DNA of 32,000 bases from Acaryochloris marina MBIC11017 (lineage in GTDB: Bacteria; Cyanobacteriota; Cyanobacteriia; Thermosynechococcales; Thermosynechococcaceae), in the NCBI RefSeq assembly GCF_000018105.1, contig NC_009932.1, positions 1 through 32,000 of the forward strand, in the 5' to 3' direction. The translations under genes were made by a program, and so were the position numbers. A model generated the notes under the pieces. That model was not told the origin of the DNA. It saw only the letters and a program-made list of their open reading frames with translations, and searched no databases. Positions 14,494 to 31,998 of the stretch are shown here, piece after piece (within the stretch, counting starts at the first letter, position 1; every line of letters starts with the position of its first letter).

Positions 14494-14583
14494 TGATTGA
14501 AATGCGACGTGGATGTCCTTCGGTTCTGAGAGAACACCCCAAACGTTGAGGCAGGCATTGAAGGGAGATTAGAACGGTTTAAA

Positions 14584-17500
14584 TCAAGAGATGACCTCCC
14601 CATCGCCTGTGAAGTTGGGGCCTTCTAGCCGCAGAAAGTAAAGCTGTCCCCCATAATCTCCAGCAACAACTGTGCAACCATCTAGGGCAATCTCACAACA
14701 TCGAAATGCACCTTCTCCGGTGAAGCTCATCACTTCCATGCCTGTCTCCAGGTCCCACACCTTGAGGGTACTGTCCCCAGACGCGGAGACCACGGTTTGG
14801 CCATCGGGGCTGATGCTCACGCCAGTGACAAGTGAAGTATGTCCTATGAGGGTGCGCTGCTCCTGGCCCGTCGCCAGGTCCCACACCTTCAGGGTATTGT
14901 CCCAAGACCCTGAGACCACGGTTTGGCCATCGGGGCTGATGCTCACACCAGTGACAAGCGAAGTATGTCCTGTGAGGGTACGCTGCTCCTCGCCCGTCTC
15001 CAGGCCCCACACCTTCAGGGTATTGTCCCCAGAAGCGGAGACCACGGTTTCACCATCGGGGCTGATGCTCACACCAGTGACAAGTGAAGTATGTCCTGTG
15101 AGGGTGCGCTGCTCTTGGCGCGTCGCCAGGTCCCATACCTTCAGGGTATTGTCCCCAGAAGCGGAGACCACGGTTTGGCTATCGGGGCTGATGCTCTCGC
15201 CAGTGACAGAGCCAGTATGTCCTATAAGAGTGCATAGTTTCTTTCCAGTCTTTAGGTTCCACACCTTGAGGGTATTGTCCCTAGACGCGGAGACCACGGT
15301 TTGGCCATCGGGGCTGATGCTCACGCCAGTGACATATTCTGTATGTCCTATAAGGGTGCATAGTTTCTTTCCAGTCTTTAGGTTCCACACCTTGAGGGTA
15401 TTGTCCCTAGACGCGGAGACCACGGTTTGGCCATCGGGGCTGATGCTCACACCAGTGACAGATGAAGTATGTCCCTTGAGGGTGTGATGCTCATTTCCAG
15501 TCTTTAGGGACCACACCTTGAGGGTATTATCACTAGACGAGGAGACGATGGTTTGGCCATTGGGGCAAATGCTGACGTCCCTTACAAAGTCAGTATGTCC
15601 TGTGAGGGTGCCATGCTCATTTCCAGTCTTTAGGGACCACACCCTGATGGTATTGTCCAAAGACGCAGAGACAACAGTTTGACCATCGAGGCTGATGCTC
15701 ATGCTATAGACAAAATCAGTATGTCCTGTGAGGGTGCGCTGCTCATTTCCCGTCTCCAAGACCCACACCTTCAGGGTCTTGTCCCTAGACGCGGAGACGA
15801 TGGTTTGGCTATCGGGGCTGATGCTCACATCAAAGACAGATGAAGTATGTCCCTTGAGGGTGCGCTGCTCATTTCCTGTCTCCAAGTCCCACACCTTAAG
15901 GGTCTTGTCCAAAGACGCAGAGACAACAGTTTGGCCATCAGGGCTGATACTGACGCCAGTGACAGATGAAGTATGTCCTATGAGAGTGCGCTGTTCCTCG
16001 CCCGTCTCCAGCTCCCACACCTTCAGGGTATTATCACTAGACGCGGAGACGACGGTTTGGCCATCGGGGCTGATACTGACACCAGTGACAGATGAAGTAT
16101 GCCCTGTGAGAGTGCGTAGCTCCCTTCCCGTCTCCAAGTCCCACACCTTCAGGGTCTTGTCCCTAGACGCAGAGACGACGGTTTGGCCACACGGGCTAAT
16201 GCTCACACGCCTGACAAAGTTAGTATGTCCTGTGAGGGTACGTAGCTCCTCGCCCGTCGCCAAGTCCCACACCTTGAGGGTATGGTCCCTAGACGCAGAG
16301 ACGACGGTTTGGCCATCGGGGCTGATGCTCACGCCAGTGACAGAGTCAGTATGTCCTGTGAGGGTGCGCACTAATGCTCCCCCCGCTTGGTTGAGGTGGG
16401 GGAATAGACACCGTATCCAGCACTCTCCCTGTCCCTGAGCCAAAGATTGAGTCAAAGCGGTCATATCCGGTGAATTTTGACTCAACAAACGCCCATAGAG
16501 CTGACTGCGAAGCTGCTCAGGATGCTGATTTAAGACATGGCTGGATAACCGCAATCCACTTTGGACTATGTTTAGGTCTTTGTCCCTGGGTAACGTCTCA
16601 TAGTCCAATAGCAGCGCATTGATATCGGTGACTCCCAATTTGCGTTGCATCCAACGATAGTCCCAGAGTAATTGGCGTAACTCATCGGTGCGTTCTGCCT
16701 GCTTGAGGTGATGGGCCAAATGCTCATAGAAATACCCATCCTTTGGTCCACGATGCCACCCCTCAGTGCAGCTCTGCTGATAAGCCTCCAGAAGTTCCTG
16801 ATGCAATGCTTTTTCGTCGGCCTGCTGGGCCTGTAAATAATCCTGCTGTAAGTCATGGAGGCTGACTTGCCGCTGAGGATAGTCCCCCTCTAGCCGCAGC
16901 ATACCTTTACTCGATAAGGTCGTTAGGATTTTGCCCGCATCTCGCTCCTTTAATGCTCCGGTATATTGCCATAGGCGAACAATGACTGCTTCAGGAATCA
17001 ATTCATCGGCTGGAAACACTGCCAGTTCTTGATACCGTTCGGCAGCGATGGGGTTGGTTTCTGCTAAGACTGTTGCACTGACATGCAGGGCTTTGAAGAC
17101 ATCGGGGTAGGAATAATGACTAAACTGTTTTTGGATAAATTCAAGATCTGAATCTTGTAAGGCACTGAGGACATGGGGCCATGGGGTTAAATCCCGCACC
17201 ATGGCACCGCATTGGGCCAGGGCTAAGGGCAAGTTTCCACATTCTCTTGCTACCGCCTGGGCTTGGGAAGGCAGTTCTGATATAGAGACGCCCACCCAAG
17301 CAGCTAATAACTCCAGCGCCTGATCGTCATTGAGTACTGACAGGGAAAAGTCAGTGGCTCCTAATCCCGTGATTAATTCTGAGTCACGGGTTGTTACCAC
17401 CAAGGTACTTTGATGTCCTAGGACATTGAAGACTTCAGCATCATCGATGCGCCAGACATCATCTAGGATCAATAGACTTTGGCGTCCCTGCCATAGGGTT

Positions 17501-18465
17501 TGAAGTCGGGTTTTCCCTTCATTGATATCTTCAAATACCTGGCGTTCACCACAAAGGGCTTCTGCTAGATCGGTTTGCTGGGCCAGCAGGTTGGGTTCTA
17601 TCCCCACGGTTAGCCAATAAATCCCATCAGGGAAGGCTGCTTGAACTTGAGGGTCATAGGCTAGGGCTGCGGCCAACACCGATTTGCCAATACCGCCCAT
17701 GCCCTGGACACCAATGCGTTGCTGATGCCCCGTCATCACTACGGGCTGAGCTAGATTGTTGAGGACTTTCTCTCTCAGGGCTTTTAGGGTCTGAGGACGA
17801 GGTAAAAAGTGGGGGGGTAACTCTGGCACTCTCCACAGCTTTTCAGGGGGCGGTTGTTCTGATAAGGGTTGGAGGGGTTCGGTTTGAATACTGGATTTTT
17901 GGACTAAGACTGGGGTGTGGGATTCGGGGAAGCCCTCGATTTGAATGGCACTGCGTCCTAGTTCAAAGGCAAATTCAATATCTCGGCCTGCACCCAAGGC
18001 ATCGTAGAAACCCACGGCAAAGGCCTGGGCTGCTTCGTTGCTGATTTCCTGCTGCATACCCACCACATAGTCAATATGTTGGGCGATGGCTTGGGCTTGC
18101 TCCTGGGTATAACATCCATTCAGAATGACGCAGTGGATATCCTCAGCAAACAGAGTAAACAAACCTGCGAGAGCTGCACCTGTGACGAGTTTGGGATTGC
18201 CTAATTCATCTTCAAAGAAGAGTCCTGCTTCACCTTCTCCCCGACCAGCGAAGTGAATTATCTGAGGAGTTTCATCCAATAATGCCCGTTGAATATCTTT
18301 AGTGCGTACATCCAGGCAGGGGCTTAGAGTGAACTGATCTCGATGCTCAGATCTGCGTAACCCGTTTTTAATGTCGCGTAATTCTCGTCCGACTTGGCGC
18401 AATCCATCGGGGTTGCTGGCAAGGAATAGAATGGTTTGCTGGTCTGGTGGGTGCGGACTCGTCAT
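14584..18465 (-). CDS. STAND/NLR-like protein: CHAT-like N-domain (catalytic His replaced by Arg), NB-ARC NTPase, 14 WD40 blades
   Basis: The N-terminal ~190 aa are paralogous to the TIR protein's N-domain (QTILFLASNP...IIHFAGRGEGE...CVILNGCYT...AVGFYDALGAGRDIEFAFELG). Walker A GVQGMGGIGKSVLAAALA, Walker B LLILDDVW, VVTTRD, and GLPL-type CGNLPLALAQCG. There are 13 canonical 42-aa WD40 repeats (LTGHTSSVTGVSISPDGQTVVSASxDNTLKVWDLETGEEQRT) plus one degenerate closing blade. Confidence 0.9.
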   Translation of the reverse strand: MTSPHPPDQQTILFLASNPDGLRQVGRELRDIKNGLRRSEHRDQFTLSPCLDVRTKDIQRALLDETPQIIHFAGRGEGEAGLFFEDELGNPKLVTGAALAGLFTLFAEDIHCVILNGCYTQEQAQAIAQHIDYVVGMQQEISNEAAQAFAVGFYDALGAGRDIEFAFELGRSAIQIEGFPESHTPVLVQKSSIQTEPLQPLSEQPPPEKLWRVPELPPHFLPRPQTLKALREKVLNNLAQPVVMTGHQQRIGVQGMGGIGKSVLAAALAYDPQVQAAFPDGIYWLTVGIEPNLLAQQTDLAEALCGERQVFEDINEGKTRLQTLWQGRQSLLILDDVWRIDDAEVFNVLGHQSTLVVTTRDSELITGLGATDFSLSVLNDDQALELLAAWVGVSISELPSQAQAVARECGNLPLALAQCGAMVRDLTPWPHVLSALQDSDLEFIQKQFSHYSYPDVFKALHVSATVLAETNPIAAERYQELAVFPADELIPEAVIVRLWQYTGALKERDAGKILTTLSSKGMLRLEGDYPQRQVSLHDLQQDYLQAQQADEKALHQELLEAYQQSCTEGWHRGPKDGYFYEHLAHHLKQAERTDELRQLLWDYRWMQRKLGVTDINALLLDYETLPRDKDLNIVQSGLRLSSHVLNQHPEQLRSQLYGRLLSQNSPDMTALTQSLAQGQGECWIRCLFPHLNQAGGALVRTLTGHTDSVTGVSISPDGQTVVSASRDHTLKVWDLATGEELRTLTGHTNFVRRVSISPCGQTVVSASRDKTLKVWDLETGRELRTLTGHTSSVTGVSISPDGQTVVSASSDNTLKVWELETGEEQRTLIGHTSSVTGVSISPDGQTVVSASLDKTLKVWDLETGNEQRTLKGHTSSVFDVSISPDSQTIVSASRDKTLKVWVLETGNEQRTLTGHTDFVYSMSISLDGQTVVSASLDNTIRVWSLKTGNEHGTLTGHTDFVRDVSICPNGQTIVSSSSDNTLKVWSLKTGNEHHTLKGHTSSVTGVSISPDGQTVVSASRDNTLKVWNLKTGKKLCTLIGHTEYVTGVSISPDGQTVVSASRDNTLKVWNLKTGKKLCTLIGHTGSVTGESISPDSQTVVSASGDNTLKVWDLATRQEQRTLTGHTSLVTGVSISPDGETVVSASGDNTLKVWGLETGEEQRTLTGHTSLVTGVSISPDGQTVVSGSWDNTLKVWDLATGQEQRTLIGHTSLVTGVSISPDGQTVVSASGDSTLKVWDLETGMEVMSFTGEGAFRCCEIALDGCTVVAGDYGGQLYFLRLEGPNFTGDGEVIS
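14725..16362 (-). repeat. 13 tandem 126-bp WD40 coding repeats with very high inter-unit identity
   Basis: The first blade starts at nt 16362 (checked against the DNA: CTC ACA GGA CAT ACT GAC TCT, i.e. LTGHTDS). Period is 126 bp. Units 8 and 9 are almost identical. The long periodic antisense shadow ORFs (14672-15487, 15728-16438) follow from this. Confidence 0.9.
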
Positions 18466-20730: not shown

Positions 20731-20778
20731 CTTCAATTTCATCATGCTAATATGCTGATTAGCATGATGAAATTGAAG
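20731..20778. repeat. Perfect 21-bp-stem hairpin/palindrome (CTTCAATTTCATCATGCTAAT - ATGCTG - ATTAGCATGATGAAATTGAAG)
   Basis: Read directly: arms 20731-20751 and 20758-20778, no mismatches. It lies in a 942-bp ORF-poor gap (20286-21227) about 450 bp upstream of the trypco2-like gene. Confidence 0.9.
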
Positions 20779-21227: not shown

Positions 21228-21578
21228 ATGAATAAAAAAGCGATCGCACAATTTCACCTTGTTAATGGTACAGAAGTACTGTTTGAGGTTCCAAAACCCT
21301 CATCAGATGTGAAGTACAAAGAAGTAGCTAACGGTGACTTCAAACAAAAGGTAATAGAAATAGCTGATGGTGCAGAAGGTACTTTAGAGGCGGCCCTTAG
21401 CAAAGTTGCACCCGTTGCAGATACCGTTTTAAGTCGTTTGAAAGAAGGGTTAACCACCCCGGCGAATGAAGTGGAAGTCAAATTTGGGGTGAATTTAACT
21501 GCCGAGGGTGGTGTAATCTTTTCCACAGTGGGAGGGCAAGTGAGCCTAGAAGTCACCCTGAAGTGGACCCAGAATTAA
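21228..21578 (+). CDS. Small trypsin-co-occurring (trypco2 / CU044_2847-like) protein
   Basis: 116 aa. The C-terminal signature EVEVKFGVNLTAEGGVIFSTVGGQVSLEVTLKW matches, from memory, the 'eveFgvkl...lkVtLkW' motif of trypco2-type proteins. It ends 13 nt upstream of the trypsin-like gene. Confidence 0.7.
   Translation: MNKKAIAQFHLVNGTEVLFEVPKPSSDVKYKEVANGDFKQKVIEIADGAEGTLEAALSKVAPVADTVLSRLKEGLTTPANEVEVKFGVNLTAEGGVIFSTVGGQVSLEVTLKWTQN
21240..21247. repeat. HIP1 octamer GCGATCGC
   Basis: Exact match read in the sequence. Confidence 0.95.
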
Positions 21579-21591
21579 CCCTAAGCCTGCA

Positions 21592-23472
21592 ATGACCGAG
21601 CCAGCAGTTCACCCAGACTATCGACAGGGAATTGTCCGTATCGTTAGAGTCAGTGATGATGATGATAAGGTTATCGAGAAAGTCATTGGAACGGGCTTTT
21701 ACCTGAGTGGACGATACATCATTACTTGTGCCCATGTGGTTAAAGAGACACTCCACATCGACACCGCGACAGAGTTTACATCCGTGGAGGTTGCCGAGGG
21801 TCGGGATATCTATGTTCAATTCAACTGCATTGAACGAAACGCTGACCCCTTAGCCACACGGGTGGTTCCTTATAGTTGGCGGCTCCATGATGAAGATCTC
21901 GTCTTACTAAAACTCCAAGTGTCTCCACCACCCGGCGTTTCACCCAGTCCAATAACGCCAACTATCACCTCATACTATGACCATCCTTTTAAGGTTTTCG
22001 GCTATCCCAACGAAGATGGCCATTGGGCACAGGGTAAGTTATCTGGGGAAAATGATCGCCAGTGGATTGAAATGTATGGTGAAGATGAGCAATGCATTAG
22101 AATACAGCCCGGTTACAGTGGTTCTCCCGTTTGGGATGTTACGTTAAGTACGATTGTTGGCATGACCGTGGCGACCCTCGTCGAAGAAGATTCAGAACTC
22201 TACGATAATCCTGAGTCGAAAATTGGATATATGATTCCTTACCGACGACTTTTACCCCTCATACAGGAGATTGAGGTTCAGTTACTTCTCGACTTGCTTA
22301 AACCCCATCAGAAAGCGGTTGAGGATCACCTACAGGAGGCTTATGGGATCTACCACCCCATATCTGAAGATCCTCCAAGTGCTCTCGCTGACAAGCTCAG
22401 GGCAGCCATGAAGGCTAAGAAACTCCCCCACTTAATGGCTTGTCTCCTTCTCCCAGAGGCTCAAGCCCCGGAGACATTAAATCAATCTCTACGGCAATGG
22501 TTTTCAGATCGTGGGTATGACATTGAACAATATAAGTTCCAAGCGGATCAAGATTACAAAGCTCACTCTCCAGAGGATCATGAAGATAAGCAGCCTCATT
22601 TACTTTTCTGGGTCCAAGATCAAGGAGCACTCTACAATGTTCAAGCTCTGTTAATCAAAGATGCGGAGTCCTACAATCCACGCAAATCCCTTGGTTGTGA
22701 CCGTTTACTAGCCCCAGGTCAATTTGATGAGGCTCTCCCCTATGAAAAATTAGAGGAGCTTCTTATTGCCTGTCTTCAAGAATGTTCTGTTCGAGGGGTG
22801 CCAGCGAACCAAAAGCTGATTGTAGAACTGTTGCTCCCGATTAAACTGCTCAATAAGGCCGTGGAGCATTGGCAGGCTGAGTCAGCAGGAGAAGATGATT
22901 TCCTTTGTTTGCCAGAATCGATCGGTTTTCGGACCCAAGTGGTGATCCGGGCCGCAGATCGCCTTCGGGCATCTCAGGATCGCAAACGCAGAGACTATTG
23001 GTATGCTGAATGGAAAAATTATCAAAAATTAAAAGAGAAACGGGCTGAAAACTGTCTGTCCTCTGGGGATGACTTGCCCCCTCAACAACTGATGGCTAGG
23101 TTGAACACTATTCAACAGGTCGGTTTATATCTCACGGAGCCTCCCACCGAAATGGCTCCAAAGACCTCTTGGACTGGAGTGCTTTTTAGCTCAGTTGCTC
23201 CCATTGCTGCTTTATGGCCTCGGCAAAAACCTAAAAACATTGACTGTTCCCAAGAATGTTGCGAGCTATTAAGTCACCCGCTATGCGAATTGCCATTTCA
23301 AATCCATTGTTGCCGTAGTCAGGCTCACGGGACTGACACTGAGGACCATCTGGGCCACCATTTGTCTTTGATGTGGGAGAATCCCCATATGATCCCTCCC
23401 AAAGTTGCCCAGCGAGATCCTGAACCTGACCCAGCGTTAACTCCAACAATTGACCATCCTTCTGAGGTTTAA
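21592..23472 (+). CDS. Trypsin-like serine protease fused to a large C-terminal VMAP-C-like (vWA-MoxR-associated) domain
   Basis: Catalytic triad contexts are present: GTGFYLSGRYIITCAHVV (His), EDLVLLKL (Asp), QPGYSGSPVWD (Ser). The C-terminal ~350 aa include LIVELLLPIKLLNKAVEHWQAE...FRTQVVIRAADRL, resembling the VMAP-C pattern as I recall it. Confidence 0.85.
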   Translation: MTEPAVHPDYRQGIVRIVRVSDDDDKVIEKVIGTGFYLSGRYIITCAHVVKETLHIDTATEFTSVEVAEGRDIYVQFNCIERNADPLATRVVPYSWRLHDEDLVLLKLQVSPPPGVSPSPITPTITSYYDHPFKVFGYPNEDGHWAQGKLSGENDRQWIEMYGEDEQCIRIQPGYSGSPVWDVTLSTIVGMTVATLVEEDSELYDNPESKIGYMIPYRRLLPLIQEIEVQLLLDLLKPHQKAVEDHLQEAYGIYHPISEDPPSALADKLRAAMKAKKLPHLMACLLLPEAQAPETLNQSLRQWFSDRGYDIEQYKFQADQDYKAHSPEDHEDKQPHLLFWVQDQGALYNVQALLIKDAESYNPRKSLGCDRLLAPGQFDEALPYEKLEELLIACLQECSVRGVPANQKLIVELLLPIKLLNKAVEHWQAESAGEDDFLCLPESIGFRTQVVIRAADRLRASQDRKRRDYWYAEWKNYQKLKEKRAENCLSSGDDLPPQQLMARLNTIQQVGLYLTEPPTEMAPKTSWTGVLFSSVAPIAALWPRQKPKNIDCSQECCELLSHPLCELPFQIHCCRSQAHGTDTEDHLGHHLSLMWENPHMIPPKVAQRDPEPDPALTPTIDHPSEV

Positions 23473-23475
23473 GCG

Positions 23476-24447
23476 ATGAGTGACTGGAAAATCTTCAAAG
23501 GTGATCGTCAAAAGAAGCCAATGGCCATCAATAGCCTACCTGCCCCTCCCCCTTGGCGGAGTTTTACGGGTAAAGAGTCCGTTTCCAGTACCCAAAAAGA
23601 GCGGCGGGGAAAGAATTTCTATCCTCGTGAAGATGAAATCGAGATGGTCAATGCTGCGCTTTACCTTCGTCGTCCACTACTGGTGACGGGTAAACCAGGA
23701 ACGGGAAAAACTTCCCTGGCTTATGCCATTACCTATGAACTAGATCTGGGTGAAGTCCTCACCTGGTCCATTACGACCCGGAGTACCCTTAGCCAAGGAC
23801 TCTACAGTTACGACGCTGTGGGGCGATTGCAGGATGCCAAACTTCAAGGTCAAGATAGCCATAAACGGTTGGGTAAATACCTTAGATTAGGGCCATTGGG
23901 GACGGCCTTACTCCCCACAGATAAGCCTCGCGTATTGTTGATTGATGAAATTGATAAAAGCGATATCGATTTTCCCAATGATCTGCTGCATGTCTTTGAA
24001 GATGGCGAATATGTGATCGAAGAACTGGCTCGGATTGCGGATGAAGCCCCCACCATTGATGTACAAACTGCCTTGCGGGATGAACAGGAAGAGAGTTATC
24101 AAGAAACCGTCTCCATTCACAAAGGGCTGGTGCGATGTACGACGTTCCCGTTGGTGATTATGACCAGTAATGGAGAGCGAGATTTTCCACCTGCTTTTTT
24201 GCGTCGCTGCTTGAGATTGGATATGGGTGAGCCGACCCCAGAGCGATTAAGGGATATTATTGAAGCCCAATTGGGTAAATCACTGGCTGACGAAGCCGGA
24301 AAAATGATTGATGACTTTGATCAAAAACGCAGGAGTGGCGATGGGGATTTGGCAACGGATCAACTCCTCAATGCGGTCTATCTGATTGGTAAAGAGGGGG
24401 CACCCGAAAAGCTGAAAGAACAGTTGCTGCAATATCTCAATCGCTAA
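23476..24447 (+). CDS. MoxR-type AAA+ ATPase (AAA_5-like)
   Basis: Walker A LLVTGKPGTGKTSLAYAI, Walker B RVLLIDEIDKSDIDFPNDLLHVFEDGEY, sensor-1 VIMTSNGER and Arg-finger region PPAFLRRC. It starts 3 nt after the protease gene's stop. Confidence 0.9.
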   Translation: MSDWKIFKGDRQKKPMAINSLPAPPPWRSFTGKESVSSTQKERRGKNFYPREDEIEMVNAALYLRRPLLVTGKPGTGKTSLAYAITYELDLGEVLTWSITTRSTLSQGLYSYDAVGRLQDAKLQGQDSHKRLGKYLRLGPLGTALLPTDKPRVLLIDEIDKSDIDFPNDLLHVFEDGEYVIEELARIADEAPTIDVQTALRDEQEESYQETVSIHKGLVRCTTFPLVIMTSNGERDFPPAFLRRCLRLDMGEPTPERLRDIIEAQLGKSLADEAGKMIDDFDQKRRSGDGDLATDQLLNAVYLIGKEGAPEKLKEQLLQYLNR

Positions 24448-24455
24448 GATTATCC

Positions 24456-27323
24456 ATGAGTTCAGCCCAGCCATCTCCCGATCCTATAAGAGGGTTTGCG
24501 ACTCTCTTAAAGGGGGCTGGTGTTGAGTTGGATGTTACTGACCTTGCGGACACCTTGTGGTTAGCGAGCAAAATTGGCCCATCAGCAAGACAAGGATTGG
24601 TTGAGAGTCCCATTCCTGAAGACCCTCAGCTACCTCTTATTCCTGAAGAGGTTGGATCTAGTGTTCCACCTACTGAGAATTTGCCTGAAGCTGCCCTCCC
24701 TACCCCCCCCGATATCCCTTTAGTCAGTCCCTCTCAAACCGTTGAAACTGAAATGAAACCCGAAGGGTTTCCTCTGCAAGTCCCTGCTGCCCCATCTCTG
24801 AGGGGAAGACTGAATCTCTCCAGAGCGTTACGTCCCCTGAAACGCAAGATCCCGTCTCCTACGCAACGGGTATTTGACGAAGCAGCAACGGTTCATCAGT
24901 ATGCAGAACAGGAAATTTTGTCTCCCGTAATGACTCCAGCCAAAGAGCGGTGGCTAGATTTGACCCTGTTAATTGAAGATCATCCCTCCACGTTCCTTTG
25001 GGAAGACACCCTGCTAGAACTAAAGCAAATCTTGGAGCGCCAGGGAGCCTTTCGCCAGATCCATACATGGCAAATACAACTACAGGTAGGGAGGGTTCGT
25101 TTATCCCCACGGCGGTATGGCCAGACGATTTCAGAACGCCACTATTCCAATCCTCGTATTCTTCAAGATCCGACACAGCGACAAGTGATTTGGATTGTGA
25201 GCGACTGTACGTCTAATCTTTGGGAAACAGCTCAATTTCAGGAATGGCTGGGACTTTGGGGTCGTAGTTCTCCCTTGGCACTGTTTCAACTATTGCCTGA
25301 GCGACTCTGGGACAGCACCCATTTAGGACAGGGGCGACCCATCCAATTAAGCGCTACTTCTGCGGGTGTTGCAAATTCCCGGCTGAAGTGGGAGCGACTG
25401 CTGGCTGATTGGGACAAAGAAGATGAGTTTGGGGATTTAGATCTTGAGCCAACACCTGAGACAGAATCCTCTCAGGCCACAGAAGAACCTAGCTCAGATC
25501 TAGATGTGTATTTGGAAACAGGAACCGCCTCGGATGATGACCCATTAGAGCAGGGAAATGGGCAAAGCAAGATTGCCTTAAACAACATTTATAAGAATCA
25601 GGTTCTATGTTTGCCAGTCATAACCCTAGAACCGGAGCCATTAAATCAATTGTCTCGGGTCATTGCTGGTCAAGTCGGATTTCAAGTGGCAGGCGTCGAA
25701 CTCCATTGGCAAGACATAGCTGAATACAAATCAGTCTTAGAACGGATTTCCAATCATAAGATGTCCCCTGAGGAACGGGTGCGTAAGTTCCATACGAATG
25801 CATCCCCCACGGCCAGTAAGTTGGCGGGGATGATGGCGGCAGTTCCCGTTAGTCTGCCAGTCGTTCAACTGATTCGCCAGACATTGCTGCCCCAGTCTCG
25901 GCAGGTGCATATTGCTGAAATCTATATGAGTGGCTTGCTAGAGCTTCAACAGAAAGCTCCAGGACCTGGCAATCCTCATTCGCCTGAGCAGCCTGAATAT
26001 GATTTTTTACCCGGAATCCGTTCGCTCCTATTGGAGACAGTCTTTAGGGATACGACTGAAGCAGTTCTTGACGCGGTGTCAGCCTATATTTCCAAACGTT
26101 TAGGGCTTTCAACCCGAAGTTTTGAAGCCTTAATTGCCAAGGCTCCTGATTTAGCCCCGGATCAACAAGCGGTTGCGATTCCCTTTGCCAGAGTTGCCAC
26201 CCAGACTTTAAGGCAATTAGGAGGGTATTACCGCGATATAGCTGAGCAGCTTGATCCGAACCCTGAGCCAGTTCAGCCTGAAAACACTAATCCTGAACCT
26301 GAGGAAGCCTTTCCACCCTTACAAATCCTTCATTTTGAGACAGCACAGCTCATAGATGAAATTGAGACAAATTTTCCAGCTCAATTGCAGTCCGAGGAAT
26401 TTGTAGTCAAAACTCTGGCTATACGAACCGGTCCAACGATTCAATCCTTTGAATATCAAACAGCCCAACTCACCTATTCCTCTGGGCAGCTTTTCCCGCC
26501 TCAACTCGCTGGATGGAAAATCCAATCCCAGCAGAGGCGAGGCCAGTTTTACTGTGAAACGCTTAGTGACGATCTGGTATTGAGAATGGTGTCCATTTCT
26601 GGAGGTCAATTTATGATGGGTTCACCAGACGACGAATCACAACGAAGAGACTGGGAAGTCCCCCGGCACCCAATTAAAATCCCAGCCTTTTTTATGGGCC
26701 GATACCCCGTTACTCAAGCTCAATGGAAAATCGTCGCCAGCTACCCAGAAATCAATCTTGGACTGAACCCCAATCCATCCAACTTCAAGGGCGACAATCG
26801 TCCAGTAGAGCAAGTGAATTGGCATGAAGCCGTAGAGTTTTGTGCTCGACTCTCTGCAACGACGAAACGCCCCTATCGTCTTCCGAGTGAAGCAGAGTGG
26901 GAATATGCCTGTCGAGCGGGAACTACAACCCCATTTTATTTCGGCGAAACTCTGACAACAGACATTGCTAATTACAACGGAGGCTATACCTATAATAACG
27001 GGCCAAAAGGGAAGTATCGGAAAGCGACAACCCCTGTAGATCACTTTCAGTATGCCAATGCTTACGGATTAAATGATATGCACGGCAATGTATGGGAATG
27101 GTGCCAAGACACCTGGCATAGGAGTTATAACGGTGCTCCAGAAGATGGGAGTGCATGGATAGGTGAGAATGATAACAATTCTAGTAAAGTCAGGCGCGGC
27201 GGTTCTTGGATCTACAATCCGAGGTACTGTCGCTCCGCGTCTCGCAGCGACGCTTATCCCGGTGACCGCAACTACTTTATCGGTTTTCGGGTAGTGTGTT
27301 CCGCGCCGAGTCCTTTTCCGTAA
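24456..27323 (+). CDS. Large multidomain protein: SAV_2336-like N-terminal domain, Pro-rich linker, possible degenerate vWA-like middle region, acidic linker, C-terminal FGE-sulfatase-fold (FGS) domain
   Basis: N-terminus: FATLLKGAGVELDVTDLADTLWLASKIG (the 'eLaDaLWLA' signature). Middle: RWLDLTLLIEDHPSTFLW...VIWIVSDCTS. C-terminus (about nt 26541-27320): GGQFMMGSPDDE...FFMGRYPVTQAQW...RPVEQVNWHEAVEFCARLS...YRLPSEAEWEYACRAGT...DMHGNVWEWCQD...RGGSW...CRSASR...IGFRVVC. Confidence 0.85.
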   Translation: MSSAQPSPDPIRGFATLLKGAGVELDVTDLADTLWLASKIGPSARQGLVESPIPEDPQLPLIPEEVGSSVPPTENLPEAALPTPPDIPLVSPSQTVETEMKPEGFPLQVPAAPSLRGRLNLSRALRPLKRKIPSPTQRVFDEAATVHQYAEQEILSPVMTPAKERWLDLTLLIEDHPSTFLWEDTLLELKQILERQGAFRQIHTWQIQLQVGRVRLSPRRYGQTISERHYSNPRILQDPTQRQVIWIVSDCTSNLWETAQFQEWLGLWGRSSPLALFQLLPERLWDSTHLGQGRPIQLSATSAGVANSRLKWERLLADWDKEDEFGDLDLEPTPETESSQATEEPSSDLDVYLETGTASDDDPLEQGNGQSKIALNNIYKNQVLCLPVITLEPEPLNQLSRVIAGQVGFQVAGVELHWQDIAEYKSVLERISNHKMSPEERVRKFHTNASPTASKLAGMMAAVPVSLPVVQLIRQTLLPQSRQVHIAEIYMSGLLELQQKAPGPGNPHSPEQPEYDFLPGIRSLLLETVFRDTTEAVLDAVSAYISKRLGLSTRSFEALIAKAPDLAPDQQAVAIPFARVATQTLRQLGGYYRDIAEQLDPNPEPVQPENTNPEPEEAFPPLQILHFETAQLIDEIETNFPAQLQSEEFVVKTLAIRTGPTIQSFEYQTAQLTYSSGQLFPPQLAGWKIQSQQRRGQFYCETLSDDLVLRMVSISGGQFMMGSPDDESQRRDWEVPRHPIKIPAFFMGRYPVTQAQWKIVASYPEINLGLNPNPSNFKGDNRPVEQVNWHEAVEFCARLSATTKRPYRLPSEAEWEYACRAGTTTPFYFGETLTTDIANYNGGYTYNNGPKGKYRKATTPVDHFQYANAYGLNDMHGNVWEWCQDTWHRSYNGAPEDGSAWIGENDNNSSKVRRGGSWIYNPRYCRSASRSDAYPGDRNYFIGFRVVCSAPSPFP

Positions 27324-27363
27324 CCCTTTCTCCCTCTTATCCTCTTACCCTCTACCGCACCCC

Positions 27364-28242
27364 ATGTCACAAGCCACCGCAAAAGAATGGATTATCCAGG
27401 AAGCAACTCATCGAAACTCTTTTTATCTTGAAAACTTGGGGAATGATCAGGCTCTGAAGATGATGGATATTCCCAAAGGGGAGTTTCAAATGGGTTCACC
27501 TGACGGGGAGGTTGATCGGAAAGATGATGAAGGGCCACAGCATTTGGTTAAGATTTCTCGATTCTTTATGTCCAAGACTCCCATTTCTCAAGCTCAATGG
27601 CAAGTGGTCGCTAAGATGCCAACGATCAATATTGAGCTGGAGGAAAGTCCTTCAAACTTCAAAGGGGTGAAGCTGCCCGTTGAGCATGTGAGTTGGCATG
27701 AGGCCGTTGAATTTTGCGATCGAATGACACAACAAACGAAAAGTCAATATCGCCTGCCCACAGAAGCAGAGTGGGAATATGCCTGTCGTGCTGGGACCTC
27801 AACTCCCTTCCACTTTGGCGAAACCATCACAACTGATCTTGCTAATTACCGTGGTACAGATTGGGAAGAATACAAATGGTCGGGTTCTTATGGTGGGGGA
27901 CCTAAAGGGGAGTATCGCCAACAAACAACTCCCGTCGATCAATTTCAAGCACCTAATAGGTACGGCCTTTGTGATATGTATGGCAACGTGAGGGAATGGT
28001 GCCAAGACATCTGGCATAGCAACTATAACAATGCCCCAGAGAATGGAAGTGCATGGATATATAAGAATGATAATGAGTCGTCAAAAGTTCTTCGCGGTGG
28101 CTCTTGGCTCGATCTGCCGGGATATTGTCGCTCTGCATCTCGCTACTATGTTCAGCCCCACTACCGCGACAACAGCATCGGTTTTCGTGTCGTGTGTTCA
28201 TCACCGAGGATTCTTCACACCAAAAAGATGGGCAAAAACTAG
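27364..28242 (+). CDS. Stand-alone FGE-sulfatase-fold (SUMF1/EgtB/PvdO-type, 'FGS') domain protein; the divergent paralog
   Basis: KGEFQMGSPDGE...FFMSKTPISQAQWQVV...LPVEHVSWHEAVEFCDRMT...YRLPTEAEWEYACRAGT...DMYGNVREWCQD...RGGSWLDLPGYCRSASR...IGFRVVC. Confidence 0.9.
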   Translation: MSQATAKEWIIQEATHRNSFYLENLGNDQALKMMDIPKGEFQMGSPDGEVDRKDDEGPQHLVKISRFFMSKTPISQAQWQVVAKMPTINIELEESPSNFKGVKLPVEHVSWHEAVEFCDRMTQQTKSQYRLPTEAEWEYACRAGTSTPFHFGETITTDLANYRGTDWEEYKWSGSYGGGPKGEYRQQTTPVDQFQAPNRYGLCDMYGNVREWCQDIWHSNYNNAPENGSAWIYKNDNESSKVLRGGSWLDLPGYCRSASRYYVQPHYRDNSIGFRVVCSSPRILHTKKMGKN

Positions 28243-28387
28243 CAGCATGGAATCTGTTGGGCGTTCCAGGGAAGAGTCCAGAACTATTCCAGTGATGCTC
28301 TACATCCGAAAATCAAACCAGGGTGTTTATCTTGGTTAGCCTAGACTGAAGAGTTGACTGCCCCATCAGATATTTGAATGATCCGAT

Positions 28388-29206
28388 ATGCCAGAGCTGA
28401 TCCTCCGACCTGAACCCAAAATGGTCCAATACTTTATTGAAGACCTGACGAATGAGAAGGGTTTATCTATGGTGTTGATACCTGTGGGAAAGTTCCTAAT
28501 GGGTTCACCGGAGGATGAACCGGAACGAAGGGAAAGAGAAGGCCCTCAGCACCCAGTAGATGTCTCAACTTTTTTTATGGGTCGCTACCCCGTTACTCAG
28601 GCTCAATGGGAAATCGTTGCCAGTTACCCAGAAATCAATCTTGAACTGAACCCCGATCCATCTAACTTCAAGGGTGACAATCGTCCCGTAGAGCAAGTGA
28701 ACTGGCATGAGGCAGTAGAGTTTTGTGCTCGTCTGTCTGCAAAGACGAATCGCACCTATCGTCTCCCGAGTGAAGCAGAGTGGGAATATGCTTGTCGAGC
28801 GGGAACCACAACTCCCTTTTACTTCGGCAAGACCCTGACAACAGACATCGCTAATTTCGATGGAAACTATATCTACAACGATGGACCTAAAGGGAAATAT
28901 CGGGAAGAGACCACCCCTGTAGATCACTTCAAATATGCCAATGCCTACGGGCTACATGATATGCACAGTAATGTGGCTGAATGGTGCCAAGACACTTGGC
29001 ACGACAACTATACAGGTGCCCCAGAAGATGGGAGTGCATGGATAGATGAAAATGATACTAATCCTAATAAAGTCCTACGGGGCGGTTCTTGGTACCTTGA
29101 TCCGAGACACTGTCGCTCTGCGTCTCGCGGCACCGATGAGTCCGATATCCGCAGTTACGTTTTCGGTTTTCGAATCGTATGTTCAGCGCCGAGCTCTCTT
29201 CCATAA
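28388..29206 (+). CDS. Stand-alone FGS domain protein; a recent paralog of the C-terminal module of the 955-aa protein
   Basis: VGKFLMGSPEDE...FFMGRYPVTQAQWEIVASYPEINLELNPDPSNFKGDNRPVEQVNWHEAVEFCARLSAKT..YRLPSEAEWEYACRAGTTTPFYFG. Nucleotide similarity to 26613-27355 is obvious by eye. Confidence 0.9.
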   Translation: MPELILRPEPKMVQYFIEDLTNEKGLSMVLIPVGKFLMGSPEDEPERREREGPQHPVDVSTFFMGRYPVTQAQWEIVASYPEINLELNPDPSNFKGDNRPVEQVNWHEAVEFCARLSAKTNRTYRLPSEAEWEYACRAGTTTPFYFGKTLTTDIANFDGNYIYNDGPKGKYREETTPVDHFKYANAYGLHDMHSNVAEWCQDTWHDNYTGAPEDGSAWIDENDTNPNKVLRGGSWYLDPRHCRSASRGTDESDIRSYVFGFRIVCSAPSSLP

Positions 29207-29345
29207 TCCTCGCCCTCTTTTATCCTTTTACCCTTGTCTTTAACGCGTCAGGGCAATCGGTTGTCTTGTCTAAATCTGAAAATAAAATATTCGACCCATA
29301 TCTTATGTTCGCTAAATCTTAGACAAAAAAGTACCGCTACCTCAC

Positions 29346-29972
29346 TCAAGGATTGAGATCACGAATCCACAAATCATCTTCGATACAACTCTCTTTAGCC
29401 CATTCCAATAGATGATTCTGAATCTGATGTTGCACCTCCAAAGACTGACTGGCTATGTTGGCTCGTACACTAAAATAGGCAGTGCCTCCCTGAGGACCAT
29501 CGGAATTATGGGTAATGCCTACTAAATAGACAAAATTCCCTGCACTGAACGGAATGTTGGTATTGCGAGGGGTACTGACAATATTCGATATTCTGGCAAT
29601 AAGACCCTCTTGGTCTGGCGTGTTTAAGGCAAGATGCATCATGTAAGCCTGCGGCCAATAGAGACAGGTGTTTTGGGAGCTAGAGACTGGCTGCAGAAAT
29701 TGATTAGCTTGGATGCGACCCTGAATGCAGGTCAAATCCTCTAAGGCTCCTTTGGCAAGAATTTCCATTTCAAATTGGTTTTGTTCTGGCAAAATCAGAT
29801 TAAACTGAATGGCTTCAACATATAGGTGCTGAAGTTCCAATAACCCAGTAACTTTGGCCACTACTCCAGCACGATCTTGCCCTCCCATGCGGAATAATAA
29901 GGAACGATTTTGGCTATCTAAATTTTTGACTGTGACCCAATCTGTGAAGACCTTGTCCATTTTTCTAACCAT
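29346..29972 (-). CDS. ACT-domain (GcvR-like, two ACT-like halves) regulatory protein
   Basis: 208 aa. The segment GGQDRAGVVAKVTGLLELQHLYVEAIQFNL is a typical ACT beta-alpha-beta start. A second half follows (LALNTPDQEGLIARISNIV...). Convergent with the FGS operon. Confidence 0.55.
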   Translation of the reverse strand: MVRKMDKVFTDWVTVKNLDSQNRSLLFRMGGQDRAGVVAKVTGLLELQHLYVEAIQFNLILPEQNQFEMEILAKGALEDLTCIQGRIQANQFLQPVSSSQNTCLYWPQAYMMHLALNTPDQEGLIARISNIVSTPRNTNIPFSAGNFVYLVGITHNSDGPQGGTAYFSVRANIASQSLEVQHQIQNHLLEWAKESCIEDDLWIRDLNP

Positions 29973-30584: not shown

Positions 30585-31043
30585 TTACAGACGGCTGTTT
30601 ATCTTCGACAGCAATTCCCTCGCTGCCTTTGTCTTTGCTTCCTGCTTAGATGATCCTTCACCATTTTCTTGAAGGCCCATCGCTTGGACATTACAACTGA
30701 ACCCGTTTGGTCTCTCCGAAAACCCATATCTGGGCAAAGTAATCTGCTGCTTTTGACACAGCTCCTGCAATTGCCCGATTGGATTCTCCACCCAATCATC
30801 CCCCTGGCTAATGGGTTTTTCTGGGATTTCTCCTTGGTTTTCTTCGGATTCTTGGCCCAGATGTAAGACTCTAATCTGTTTCTCTGCTTGTCGAATAGCT
30901 TGTTTCCTGGCTCTCTCAAGAAGCTTGACCAGGGCATCTTCTGGGTCGTCGTTTGGGAAAAGGTAGGCGAGGAATCCAATCTGCTCTTCGGTTATATGGA
31001 TGTTGAGGTTGTGAGAATGTTGCGATCGCAAAGTCGTCTCCAA
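30585..31043 (-). CDS. Protein with a C-terminal double-stranded-RNA-binding domain (dsRBD) and a possible N-terminal ribbon-helix-helix
   Basis: The C-terminal segment NPIGQLQELCQKQQITLPRYGFSERPNGFSCNVQAMGLQENGEGSSKQEAKTKAARELLSKI fits the dsRBD alpha-beta-beta-beta-alpha consensus (P..L.E..Q....P.Y...F...V...G.G.SKK.A...AA..L). The N-terminal NLNIHITEEQIGFLAYLF..PEDALVKLLERARKQ could be an RHH. TTG start in the track. Confidence 0.7.
   Translation of the reverse strand: METTLRSQHSHNLNIHITEEQIGFLAYLFPNDDPEDALVKLLERARKQAIRQAEKQIRVLHLGQESEENQGEIPEKPISQGDDWVENPIGQLQELCQKQQITLPRYGFSERPNGFSCNVQAMGLQENGEGSSKQEAKTKAARELLSKINSRL
31022..31029. repeat. HIP1 octamer GCGATCGC
   Basis: Exact match read in the sequence. 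Confidence 0.95.
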
Positions 31044-31356: not shown

Positions 31357-31998
31357 GTGGGTAAGATCATTAGCTTAGTCAATGAAAAGGGTGGAAGTAC
31401 AAAAAGTACAACCTGTGTACATCTGGCGACTTGGCTTAAGAATGCTGATTACAACGTGTGCGTCATTGATGCCGATCCTCAGAAAAGCTCATCTGTATGG
31501 ATTGAGTCCTTAGAATTGGATATCCCATGCACATTGATGTTTTCTGCGGACGACCTAATTGATAAGACTGGAGACCTCGCCGATGAGTTTGACTATGTAG
31601 TCATTGATAGTCCTGGAAAAACTGATGAAATTACTCGCGCAATTTTGTTAGTGAGTGATTTCGCACTACTACCAGTCCCCCCAGCGGGCTTGGATCTACA
31701 TCCAAGCCAAAAAACTGTTCGCCTCGTCAAGCAAGCGCAGAAAGTTAGGGGTGGATTGCCAAAAGGAGCGCTATTCATAAACAGAGCAGGTAAAAATACT
31801 CGCTTAAAGGATGAAACGAAGCAAGCTCTGAAAGACATCAAGGAAGTAGACACTCTTGAAACGATAGTCCATTTCAAGCAAGTGATCATCGATTCATTTG
31901 GTCAAGGTCAGACCGTCTTCTCAATGAAAGGTAGAGCTGCCAAAGATGCGGCGAGGGAATTCAACAAGTTATTTACTGAGTTATTGGAGATTATGTAA
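31357..31998 (+). CDS. parA: ParA/Soj-family partition ATPase (short, type Ib-like, no N-terminal HTH)
   Basis: GTG start. Deviant Walker A: IISLVNEKGGSTKSTTCVHLA. Also VCVIDADPQ and DYVVIDSPG. The stop TAA (31996-31998) overlaps an ATG (31998-32000), which suggests a coupled downstream partner gene beyond the window. Confidence 0.9.
   Translation: MGKIISLVNEKGGSTKSTTCVHLATWLKNADYNVCVIDADPQKSSSVWIESLELDIPCTLMFSADDLIDKTGDLADEFDYVVIDSPGKTDEITRAILLVSDFALLPVPPAGLDLHPSQKTVRLVKQAQKVRGGLPKGALFINRAGKNTRLKDETKQALKDIKEVDTLETIVHFKQVIIDSFGQGQTVFSMKGRAAKDAAREFNKLFTELLEIM

Follow-up and report, generated by a model that had tools for sequence, protein, structure and literature searches.

The six-gene locus at positions 21228 to 29206 of the window (the whole 32,000-nucleotide stretch of DNA analyzed) is, judged by its sequence, a VMAP-type MoxR-vWA ternary conflict system in its cyanobacterial trypsin/Trypco1 and FGS form. 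The VMAP ternary system, so far known only from comparative genomics, has already been catalogued, and the one unusual feature here is the probable loss of its diversity-generating retroelement (DGR). The explanation that we consider quite probable combines this identity with a history of DGR deletion and a mechanism that would lead from the FGS modules to the peptidase.

Gene layout and protein families

All six open reading frames are on the plus strand and start with ATG, with intergenic gaps of 13, 3, 8, 40 and 145 nt; the ORF listing agreed exactly with the gene coordinates and gaps of the first-pass annotation. A promoter and terminator scan, bearing on whether genes 5 and 6 belong to the operon, gave a signal no better than that of shuffled sequence. 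In Acaryochloris marina MBIC11017 the locus is carried by a 155 kb replicon and is surrounded by other conflict genes of the NTPase/TIR/caspase type, with TIR, CHAT and NB-ARC genes in the window. All domain assignments passed curated cut-offs, except for the ATPase subfamily and the vWA domain.

Gene 1 (21228-21578, 116 aa) encodes Trypco1 (trypsin-co-occurring domain 1; CU044_2847 family), as indicated by matches to Pfam PF19493 (4.6e-21) and NCBIfam NF041216, CU044_2847 (2.7e-18). It had been labeled Trypco2, an assignment rejected since the profile searches matched Trypco1 and gave zero Trypco2 matches. In the locus survey Trypco1 was found directly upstream of the trypsin-type VMAP in 20/20 loci with enough upstream sequence. 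Gene 2 (21592-23472, 626 aa) encodes a VMAP protein with a trypsin-like serine peptidase domain (aa ~30-195; Pfam Trypsin_2, 1.2e-16) followed by VMAP-M1 (aa 235-341; Pfam, 6.2e-18) and VMAP-C (aa 376-598; Pfam, 5e-30). The protease triad, already described as intact, consists of His48, Asp102 and Ser176 and is invariant across 7 homologues. Profile search also tied the non-protease tail, composed of VMAP-M1 and VMAP-C, to the VMAP-C family suspected earlier. This tail matched 633 cluster representatives at E<=1e-3, and VMAP-M/C identity among relatives was just 25-41%, although their gene 3 ATPases share 57-77%.

Gene 3 (23476-24447, 323 aa) encodes a VMAP-type MoxR-like AAA+ ATPase, assigned from Pfam AAA_5 (8.5e-8, full model length) and from its N-terminal motifs. 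The motif set is complete, as previously noted, with Walker A GKPGTGKT (aa 72-79), Walker B DE (157-158), sensor-1 Asn232 and the RR243-244 pair, all invariant in 28 homologues. Pfam AAA_3 was not matched, and a profile search of the PDB returned generic AAA+ matches only, giving no placement in the MoxR clade. The N-terminal extension carries WKIFKG (aa 4-9) and PPWRSF (aa 25-30), which fit WxhapG and PsWRxa, the motifs described by Kaur et al. (PMC7159879) as unique to VMAP-system MoxRs; residues W4, P25, W27, R28 and F30 are unchanged in the 28 homologues.

Gene 4 (24456-27323, 955 aa) encodes the vWA-component, assigned with NCBIfam, Pfam and AlphaFold2. Its SAV_2336 N-domain, which includes DLADTLWLA at aa 29-37, was confirmed by NCBIfam SAV_2336_NTERM (2.5e-112, aa 28-550), and its C-terminal FGE-sulfatase-fold module by Pfam FGE-sulfatase (9.7e-54, aa 710-947). 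AlphaFold2 models (pLDDT 78.6 and 80.2) predict an N-terminal helical extension at aa 10-39 and, after a disordered linker (aa 44-113), a vWA-like alpha/beta domain (aa ~131-314) with Glu174 and Asp250, then a C-terminal helical extension (aa ~370-600), a linker and an FGS/C-type-lectin-fold module (aa ~689-955); low-confidence linkers span aa 44-113, 326-366 and about 600-690. The top Foldseek PDB matches of the vWA-like domain were the vWA domains of NorD (NorQD complex), CMG2, CLCA1, TRAP and TFIIH-p44, but these matches are weak (E 2.6e-3 to 7e-2, TM 0.26-0.42) and phosphoribosyltransferases score alike, so that aa ~131-314 may only tentatively be called vWA-like. The locus had been suggested to be a vWA-degenerate variant. 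Among 66 cyanobacterial homologues, however, Glu (E174) invariably serves as the first MIDAS acid, with x-[S/T]-x-S after it, and Asp (D250) invariably as the second, indicating that Glu174/Asp250 is the norm and not a trait of this locus; A. marina departs from the clade only by a His at +2, found in 2/66 homologues.

Genes 5 (27364-28242, 292 aa) and 6 (28388-29206, 272 aa) encode the two stand-alone FGS modules recognized before, now confirmed by Pfam FGE-sulfatase (8.5e-53 and 6e-52, respectively). Family-invariant residues are kept in the FGS cores. NCBI annotates the FGS proteins as members of the formylglycine-generating enzyme family, with PvdO as top NCBIfam match, and classical MoxR-vWA pairs are maturation chaperones (PMC7159879). 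Both facts would suit a role outside defence, in which a MoxR-vWA chaperone matures or regulates FGE-family enzymes, or in which the locus is a tunable signalling pathway. On the other hand, every enzyme-family match of the FGS proteins lies far under its equivalog cut-off (PvdO, 150 versus 500 bits), and the module is nearer to TvpA, a DGR variable protein of Treponema denticola, than to true formylglycine-generating enzymes: the nearest solved relatives of gene 6 by sequence were PvdO (6e-36) and TvpA (7e-23), the true enzymes trailing at 1e-16. Moreover, hypervariability clusters at DGR positions (Fisher p 7e-6 and 4e-7 in two of the pairs), and the presence of a protease together with Trypco1, the rapidly evolving partners and the conflict-gene neighbourhoods, both in the window and in a relative (L015) set among restriction-modification and DarTG genes, fit conflict systems. 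A non-defence role is thus regarded as very unlikely. The classical pairs RavA-ViaA, NorQ-NorD, CbbQ-CbbO and CoxD-CoxE do resemble the locus in that an AAA+ ATPase gene adjoins that of a vWA-type partner, and NorD is the top structural match of the vWA-like domain, but they serve metalloenzyme maturation, have a canonical DxSxS MIDAS and are devoid of VMAP, protease and hypervariable module, whereas the ATPase of the locus is without the AAA_3 match.

Related loci and the known VMAP system

Gene order was essentially invariant across 87 related loci. VMAP-C was upstream of MoxR in 72/73 loci, the vWA component was downstream of MoxR in 74/87, the remainder being truncated, and FGS was fused in 33/40. 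Leptolyngbya iicbica has the identical six-gene layout, adjoining DarT/Macro and a type I restriction-modification system. The genes are therefore co-conserved elsewhere and the suspected families are linked by profiles. In agreement with this, the core call of the first-pass annotation, a VMAP/MoxR ternary conflict system, stands, whereas its Trypco2 label and its locus-specific vWA degeneracy do not.

The VMAP ternary system of Kaur, Burroughs, Iyer and Aravind (eLife 2020, PMC7159879), whose data set included the MBIC11017 genome, matches the locus in its three core proteins and in their strict 5'-3' order. Shared features are VMAP-C, a trypsin N-domain with a Trypco neighbour, the MoxR N-terminal aromatic/Arg motifs, helical extensions flanking the vWA domain and the placement of FGS at the extreme C-terminus; the vWA-component, at 955 aa, is near the ~850-aa mode of that study. 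The first MIDAS acid differs, being Glu here and in the whole sampled cyanobacterial clade but Asp in the system of Kaur et al. A DGR in cis is absent here, whereas about 80% of cyanobacterial systems are DGR-associated according to the same authors. Architecture, gene order, Trypco-trypsin pairing, C-terminal FGS syntax and the DGR link have thus been described already (PMC7159879, PMC10907252); PADLOC contained no model covering the VMAP ternary system.

Traces of a diversity-generating retroelement

Close relatives, including a plasmid of a sister strain, carry avd, a reverse transcriptase (RT) gene and a template repeat (TR) between FGS genes. In three relatives with avd, RT and TR (L011, L012 and L016) the TR and the variable regions (VRs) differ at 15-17 of 31 adenine columns and at 0-2 of 85-92 other columns. 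The C-termini of the relatives' FGS modules thus depart from the TR almost exclusively at TR adenines, a targeting that was overlooked in the first-pass annotation and, with it, the loss of the DGR at this locus. No avd, RT or TR was found anywhere in the 32-kb window.

Plasmid pREC1 of Acaryochloris marina MBIC10699 (NZ_AP026076.1, 48.5-59.8 kb) likewise encodes Trypco1, serine protease, MoxR, vWA/FGS, FGS and FGS, and shares with the locus the VR-type ends, the C/T-rich flanks and, ahead of the third FGS gene, a post-TR RNA element. In pREC1 alone, the second and third FGS genes are separated by RT, avd, two transposase genes and a TR, and the three pREC1 VRs agree with this TR at 90/92 non-adenine positions. 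The two systems are paralogous, not orthologous, with FGS DNA identity of about 72%.

The following traces all lie on the plus strand. At its 3' end, gene 4 carries a VR homologue (27195-27310) that aligns in register with both the VRs and the TRs of relatives bearing a DGR. Next come the VR-type end TCTTCCGTAA and then a C/T-rich flank (27324-27363) whose motif also occurs in the VR flanks of pREC1. In gene 6 a VR-type end and a C/T-rich flank (29207-29250) likewise come after the VR homologue (29078-29193). Gene 5 has, at its 3' end, a VR/TR hybrid (28093-28208) in the position of the relatives' template repeat; it has no VR-type stop or flank, continues into a TR-type flank and gives the protein an aberrant C-terminal tail (..SSPRILHTKKMGKN). 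A degraded relic of the structured post-TR RNA (the downstream 'Sp'-type part of DGR RNA) was detected by blastn and a covariance model at 28233-28366, within the 145 nt that separate genes 5 and 6. Blastn matched it to the post-TR sequence of 10 relatives (E down to 1e-12), and its covariance-model score of 76.9 bits (E 2e-20) falls short of the 116-140 bits reached by copies in DGR-bearing loci. With the same model this RNA, whose alignment has 39 pairs with compensatory changes in 18, was found as a single copy per locus, always immediately 3' of the TR. From the gene 5 hybrid through the RNA element to the next FGS start the alignment with the TR loci of six relatives was unbroken. The hybrid keeps adenine at 10/14 TR-adenine columns in its 3' half and 4/14 in its 5' half, the former value being reached by only 2/51 other VRs, a weak signal (p about 0.03). 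We infer from these sequences that avd-RT was removed by VR x TR recombination at gene 5, the crossover point not being mappable.

The ancestor would thus have had a DGR (avd, reverse transcriptase, TR and structured downstream RNA) separating its second FGS gene from the third. In each of the three FGS modules, this element would have rewritten about 28 adenine-templated positions within the final ~40 codons. Recombination between the VR of the second FGS gene and the TR would then have deleted avd and RT. As a result, gene 5 would have become fused to the TR flank, and the post-TR RNA would survive ahead of gene 6 as a relic in decay. Since then the three putative FGS binding sites would have been frozen and drifting. 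Identity between VR scaffolds inside the window was 0.76-0.85, no better than that of the adjoining 300 nt (0.68-0.82), compared with 0.92-1.00 within loci with a TR; synonymous-type divergence was 0.25-0.33 for the VR scaffolds versus 0.28-0.44 for the remaining domains. Divergence so near the domain level suggests either that the last homogenization happened long ago or that the three modules never shared one TR.

The DGR-less state could also have arisen without deletion, being ancestral or reflecting FGS genes diversified in trans by a remote DGR. Among the 19 FGS-fused loci for which 6 kb or more of downstream sequence was available, 11 had no RT within 9 kb, some RT-less loci (L014 and L096) retain homogenized VR scaffolds (0.98-0.99), implying a DGR out of view, and remote DGR targets are on record (PMC5758913). 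However, the VR scaffolds in the window are not homogenized and hence are not being rewritten by any single TR, and in the only DGR reported for MBIC11017 an IS4 element interrupts the RT (PMC3521204). In addition, an ancestral DGR-less state leaves unexplained why the RNA element, which in relatives occurs only beside TRs, directly follows the gene 5 VR with a reduced score. A history without deletion is accordingly judged improbable.

DGR loss, the degrading RNA relic, the altered gene 5 C-terminus and the His in the MIDAS-like loop of the vWA domain, where Ser/Thr is usual, could instead mark the whole locus as a decaying remnant whose function was lost. This is unlikely, since six reading frames are intact across 8 kb, all tested catalytic and signature residues are conserved, the FGS cores included, and the divergence built up since DGR loss should have broken unconstrained ORFs.

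Proposed mechanism and direction of signalling

[quoted passage not shown] Remodelling would activate the trypsin-like peptidase, acting with its obligate partner Trypco1. The peptidase might then cut either the vWA-protein linkers or, in an abortive response, cell targets. The signal takes this direction, with FGS sensing, MoxR relaying and the protease executing, in the model proposed by Dore et al. (PMC10907252).

In the model put forward by Kaur et al. (PMC7159879) the signal flows the opposite way in the same system. The variable VMAP-M region would sense the invader, MoxR-vWA remodelling would lead the trypsin to cut vWA-protein linkers, and FGS would be released as diffusible effectors that bind and neutralize invader molecules, the stand-alone FGS proteins being extra effectors. 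The fast evolution of VMAP-M/C relative to the ATPases and the long low-confidence linkers of the 955-aa protein, as modeled possible cleavage sites, are consistent with this order of events. Against it, DGR-diversified C-type-lectin folds bind ligands in every studied case, so that a sensor fits at least equally, and a sensor role was argued by Dore et al.; the FGS sequences also appear to be without enzymatic features, with one Cys where formylglycine-generating enzymes need two. The present observations are compatible with either direction; we hold the opposite flow to be possible but somewhat unlikely.

Further close counterparts of the locus are the DGR-diversified ternary and STAND conflict systems that Dore et al. 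[quoted passage not shown] Variable regions in the FGS modules and several targets per locus are likewise common to both. Those loci show active diversification in natural populations, whereas at the MBIC11017 locus the retroelement is gone and the VRs are fixed.

The VMAP ternary locus

Six plus-strand genes were recovered from the ORF listing at 21228-29206, separated by gaps of 13, 3, 8, 40 and 145 nt as the first-pass annotation had described. The six proteins (ABW33198-ABW33203) are encoded on a 155,110-bp replicon, which we take to be plasmid pREB7; the presence of a ParA-type gene (31357-31998) is consistent with a plasmid. Each protein is a singleton in its own 90% cluster, and the RefSeq product names are 'CU044_2847 family', 'VMAP-C domain-containing', 'MoxR family ATPase' and 'formylglycine-generating enzyme family'. 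A promoter and terminator scan for operon structure gave fewer sites than shuffled sequence.

Gene 1 matched Trypco1 (PF19493, 4.6e-21) and CU044_2847 (2.7e-18) in Pfam and NCBIfam; since neither database gave a Trypco2 match, the Trypco2 label attached to it earlier is wrong. In Pfam, gene 2 matched Trypsin_2 (1.2e-16), VMAP-M1 (PF19963, 6.2e-18) and VMAP-C (PF20028, 5e-30, 105.5 bits against a cut-off of 27), and the last two matches link its non-protease tail to the VMAP family, as had been supposed. The protease triad consists of His48, Asp102 and Ser176, invariant across 7 homologues. Gene 3 matched generic AAA+ families in Pfam, with AAA_5 as the top match (8.5e-8 over the whole model) and no match to AAA_3; the ATPase motifs first read from the sequence (GKPGTGKT, DE157-158, Asn232 and the RR243-244 pair) are all invariant across 28 homologues. 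The translation of gene 4, a 955-aa protein, contains DLADTLWLA at aa 29-37, and searches of Pfam and NCBIfam gave SAV_2336_NTERM at its N-terminus (aa 28-550, 2.5e-112) and FGE-sulfatase at its C-terminus (aa 710-947, 9.7e-54). The two stand-alone FGS genes downstream, genes 5 and 6, matched FGE-sulfatase in Pfam (8.5e-53 and 6e-52). Thus the domain layout claimed for genes 4 to 6 was recovered, and the three FGS modules are paralogous, with a mutual identity of 61-71%.

In the VMAP ternary system of Kaur et al. 2020 (PMC7159879), VMAP, MoxR and a vWA component follow in strict order, VMAP proteins carry VMAP-C and VMAP-M regions with an N-terminal peptidase, and trypsin-type VMAPs are adjoined by Trypco1 or Trypco2. 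In agreement with this description, the order VMAP, MoxR, vWA component is present in the window, VMAP-C is C-terminal in gene 2 and preceded by VMAP-M1, and a Trypco1 gene accompanies the trypsin-type VMAP. The C-terminal effector domains of the vWA component are variable; in cyanobacterial systems this domain is FGS, always last, and about 80% of these systems are linked to a diversity-generating retroelement (DGR) (PMC7159879). The FGE-sulfatase match at aa 710-947 of the 955-aa protein places the locus with this cyanobacterial FGS subtype. On the other hand, no avd, reverse transcriptase (RT) or template repeat (TR) occurs in the 32 kb, unlike in the DGR-coupled ternary systems.

The genome table of Kaur et al. 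2020 lists A. marina MBIC11017 (PMC7159879), and the architecture, phyletic pattern and DGR link of the system are already published from comparative genomics, this genome included. The earlier interpretation was right in kind and erred on Trypco2, on a variant vWA domain and on novelty; the DGR was overlooked. A search of the full-text literature found no experimental characterisation of the VMAP ternary system. No PADLOC v2 system model was matched by the locus, the partial matches (IetA, mad8 and RT-protease) being at the P-loop or protease level over short stretches (E 1e-5 to 1e-8).

Co-conservation was surveyed on the contigs of 5 ATPase homologues and in 80 metagenome loci, scanned with custom-built HMMs. 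VMAP-C was directly upstream of the ATPase in 72 of the 73 loci having room, and SAV_2336-N directly downstream in 74 of 87, the others being truncated. Trypsin-type VMAPs were accompanied by Trypco1 in 20/20 surveyed loci, and the vWA component was fused to FGS in 33/40. Homologues number more than 8000 for the ATPase (the best at 57-77% identity) and at least 301 for the vWA component, nearly all of the latter with an FGE-sulfatase end; for the VMAP tail, 633 cluster representatives were matched. The six-gene layout of the window recurs in Leptolyngbya iicbica, where the locus has three FGS modules, lacks an RT and adjoins DarT/Macro and a type I restriction-modification system.

ATPase, vWA-like domain and FGS modules

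The N-terminal MoxR motifs WxhapG and PsWRxa are unique to the VMAP ternary system (PMC7159879). Gene 3 carries WKIFKG (aa 4-9) and PPWRSF (aa 25-30), which fit these motifs, and W4, P25, W27, R28 and F30 are invariant across 28 homologues. A profile search of PDB with gene 3 returned generic AAA+ proteins only (RuvBL1, ClpC and midasin at 3e-4) and a sequence search of PDB nothing beyond such matches; its putative placement in the MoxR clade of AAA+, which is marked by a helix-2 insert, rests on the signature motifs and the literature. NCBIfam MadB/IteA and PADLOC IetA/mad8/TRIP13 were rejected as the family of gene 3, their matches being weak and covering little beyond the P-loop region.

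The vWA domain of VMAP ternary systems carries one acidic residue at the end of strand 1 and another at the end of strand 4; the helical extensions around it bear an acidic/aromatic motif on the N-terminal side and conserved S, E and R residues on the C-terminal side (PMC7159879). Gene 4 gave no Pfam VWA match, and its N-terminal 680 aa gave no phmmer match in PDB. Confident AlphaFold2 models of gene 4, one of aa 1-600 (pLDDT 78.6) and one of aa 115-330 (pLDDT 80.2), show a predicted alpha/beta domain in which one strand ends at Glu174 and another at Asp250, each leading into a helix; predicted helices at aa 10-39 and 370-600 flank this domain. NorD of the NorQD complex was the top Foldseek match to this domain in PDB, followed by the vWA domains of CMG2, CLCA1, TRAP and TFIIH-p44; the matches are weak (E 3e-3 to 7e-2, TM 0.26-0.42), with phosphoribosyltransferases interleaved among them. 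The modelled fold thus leans towards vWA, inconclusively. Among 66 gene 4 homologues the end of strand 1 reads E-x-[S/T]-x-S, with Glu174 invariant, S (43), T (11), N (7) or H (2) at +2 and S at +4 in 51; Asp250 (SDC) is also invariant. The locus had been described as a possible 'vWA-degenerate variant'. Since A. marina departs from the pattern by His176 only, the non-canonical MIDAS is a property common to the clade and not special to the window. In the extensions, D29, D32, W35, L36 and A37 are conserved in the homologue alignment; R522 is almost invariant, and S450 and E488 fully so.

The sequence relatives of the FGS modules ranked as PvdO (6e-36), Treponema denticola TvpA (7e-23), which is a DGR variable protein, and true formylglycine-generating enzymes (about 1e-16). 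A pair of catalytic cysteines is required in the true enzyme, whereas direct reading of the CRSASR segment of the FGS modules revealed one Cys only. Equivalog-level similarity is likewise absent, all NCBIfam enzyme equivalogs scoring far below their cut-offs. Judged by sequence, the FGS domains appear to be binding modules rather than sulfatase-maturing enzymes.

In the model of Kaur et al. FGS is the released effector (PMC7159879). Dore et al. 2024 proposed FGS/C-type-lectin modules as sensors and showed DGR diversification of such loci in nature (PMC10907252). The best-supported mechanism would start with the binding of an invader molecule by the FGS modules; a complex organised by VMAP-C would next be remodelled through the MoxR ATPase and the vWA-like domain, and the trypsin domain, together with Trypco1, would then be switched on.

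Variable regions and a probable retroelement deletion scar

In the two closest long-contig ATPase relatives (68% and 67% identity), bAvd and an RVT_1 RT lie between the vWA/FGS gene and the stand-alone FGS gene. The order on pREC1, a plasmid of the sister strain A. marina MBIC10699, is Trypco1, protease, MoxR, vWA/FGS and FGS, followed by RT and avd on the minus strand, two transposase genes, the TR and a third FGS gene. The last approximately 120 nt of each FGS module, the variable region (VR), matches the TR in DGR-bearing relatives, where TR and VR mismatch at 15-17 of 31 TR-adenine columns as against 0-2 of 85-92 others. The three FGS ends of the window (27195-27310 in gene 4, 28093-28208 in gene 5 and 29078-29193 in gene 6) can be aligned with these VRs in register, and their variation falls on the same columns, with an excess at adenine columns (Fisher p = 0.009, 7e-6 and 4e-7).

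No RT, avd, TR or fourth repeat copy was found within the 32-kb window. Its VR scaffolds mutually differ at 13-21 of 86 non-adenine positions; those of TR-bearing relatives mostly show 0-2 non-adenine differences, and 7 at most. Within-locus identity of FGS paralogues was compared across 23 loci. In loci with a TR in cis it was 0.92-1.00 over the VR scaffold (non-adenine columns) and 0.62-0.84 over the preceding 300 nt, and in the window 0.76-0.85 and 0.68-0.82, respectively. On these comparisons the window VRs are no longer rewritten by a common template. Synonymous-type divergence of the window FGS sequences was 0.25-0.33 in the VR scaffolds versus 0.28-0.44 elsewhere in the domain; the two levels are close, and therefore the last homogenisation is old. 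A VR/TR pattern scan of a genome contig collection that does not include MBIC11017 returned 5 unrelated loci, and the best 120 homologues of the 272-aa FGS protein included no further A. marina paralogues. The sole DGR reported for MBIC11017 has an RT split by an IS4 element (PMC3521204); to judge by its GI number, this DGR lies on the chromosome.

The 145-nt spacer between genes 5 and 6 matches one place in each of 10 relatives, down to E 1e-12. In the nine with a detectable TR the match lies 20-40 nt past it, and the tenth is L079, a locus with an RT fragment only. The stretch from the gene 5 VR to the start of gene 6 aligns continuously with the TR, downstream element and third FGS start of six relatives. 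The ends of genes 4 and 6 are VR-like: ..TCTTCC(G/A)TAA is followed by a C/T-rich tract common to all three pREC1 VR flanks. This tract (CCCTTT.CCC.TTTTACCCTCTT-like; 27324-27363 and 29207-29250 in the window; 6885-6913, 7767-7793 and 12240-12265 in L016, a DGR-carrying relative) lies directly past the stop codon in all VR-bearing FGS genes of both A. marina strains except gene 5, and may be a target-recognition element for retrohoming; no hairpin was predicted downstream of the VRs. Gene 5 has the tail ILHTKKMGKN because it reads into a TR-type flank.

The post-TR element is a structured RNA of about 137 nt immediately 3' of the TR in cyanobacterial VMAP-linked DGRs, with 39 predicted pairs, 18 of them showing compensatory changes; Rfam has no family for it. 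It was located at 28233-28366 in the window and, among other relatives, in L011 (15757-15894), L012 (15834-15972), L016 (11305-11443), L019 (9375-9519) and L094 (15707-15844). A covariance model was built without the window and with L094 held out of training. Single copies scoring 116-140 bits were found in the DGR-bearing loci; L094 scored 123 bits, L079 95 bits and the window copy, a relic of the element, 77 bits. The RT-less loci L014, L015 (beside DarTG and restriction-modification genes) and L021 gave no match to the model. Since conserved RNA elements just downstream of TRs, cyanobacteria included, were described by Handa et al. (bioRxiv 10.1101/2023.10.23.563531), the class is already known, and the post-TR RNA probably corresponds to their downstream DGR-RNA elements.

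This scar is most simply read as the outcome of a deletion of avd and RT, in which the second VR and the TR would have recombined as direct repeats. In the gene 5 VR, adenine occupies 10/14 TR-adenine columns of the 3' half versus 4/14 of the 5' half, and only 2/51 other VRs reach 10/14; this retention weakly favours a mid-repeat crossover. We also considered the gene 5 VR as a working TR, and rejected it because just 50% of its TR-adenine columns are A and the RNA downstream scores low. The deletion scar recording retroelement loss is the sole new item of this analysis, a small evolutionary observation about DGR loss.

A broader proposal is that the locus represents a natural 'retroelement knockout', in which VR x TR excision of avd-RT fixed three receptor specificities and the six genes stayed intact through substantial later divergence; we offer it tentatively and consider it rather unlikely. 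If it were true, the ternary machinery would work with germline-fixed receptors, bacteria would shift between diversifying and fixed-repertoire modes of one immune system, and recombination of VR with TR would count as a general route by which DGRs are lost and a scar is left behind. The value of the locus is as a compact test case, with a cultured strain, six plasmid genes, no retroelement and fixed binding sites. The sister-strain locus retains the DGR and is usable for comparison, and the pair could help to separate the sensing from the executing component in ternary systems.

A second decayed DGR was observed in the related metagenome locus L079 (15655-16305), comprising a 342-nt RT fragment and the post-TR RNA. 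Since the two FGS VR scaffolds of this locus are still 98% identical, its DGR loss is suggested to be more recent than that in the window.

Assembly breaks and neighbouring genes

The assemblies of this locus on Logan contigs (L001-L005, runs SRR29694078-91), which come from independent sequencing runs, all break at the same point, near aa 818 of the 955-aa protein. The shared break falls within the first FGS module and ahead of its VR, and was likely caused by the near-repeat nature of the three FGS copies.

A 942-nt AT-rich intergenic region contains a perfect 21-nt inverted repeat (20731-20778, loop of 6 nt), some 450 nt before Trypco1 begins; it was not found in the related loci. The system is directly followed by a 208-aa ORF of opposite orientation that has no family match (29346-29972, minus), and a 152-aa ORF at 30585-31043 (minus) matched a double-stranded-RNA-binding motif (2.5e-6). 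A 1299-aa TPS-domain/DUF4347/Big_1 protein is encoded at 3094-6993 (minus), and at 7752-10820 (plus) a repeat protein of 1022 aa that weakly matched an inverse-autotransporter beta-domain. The surrounding G+C falls to 28-34% at 1001-3000, which suggests a mosaic plasmid region. At 11186-18465, conflict-type genes lie in a row on the minus strand, encoding NB-ARC-TPR (695 aa), CHAT-TIR (380 aa) and CHAT-NB-ARC-APAF1_C-WD40 proteins. The last of these, which is Apaf-1-like, has 13 WD40 repeats that correspond to 126-nt DNA repeats, most of them 79-91% identical.
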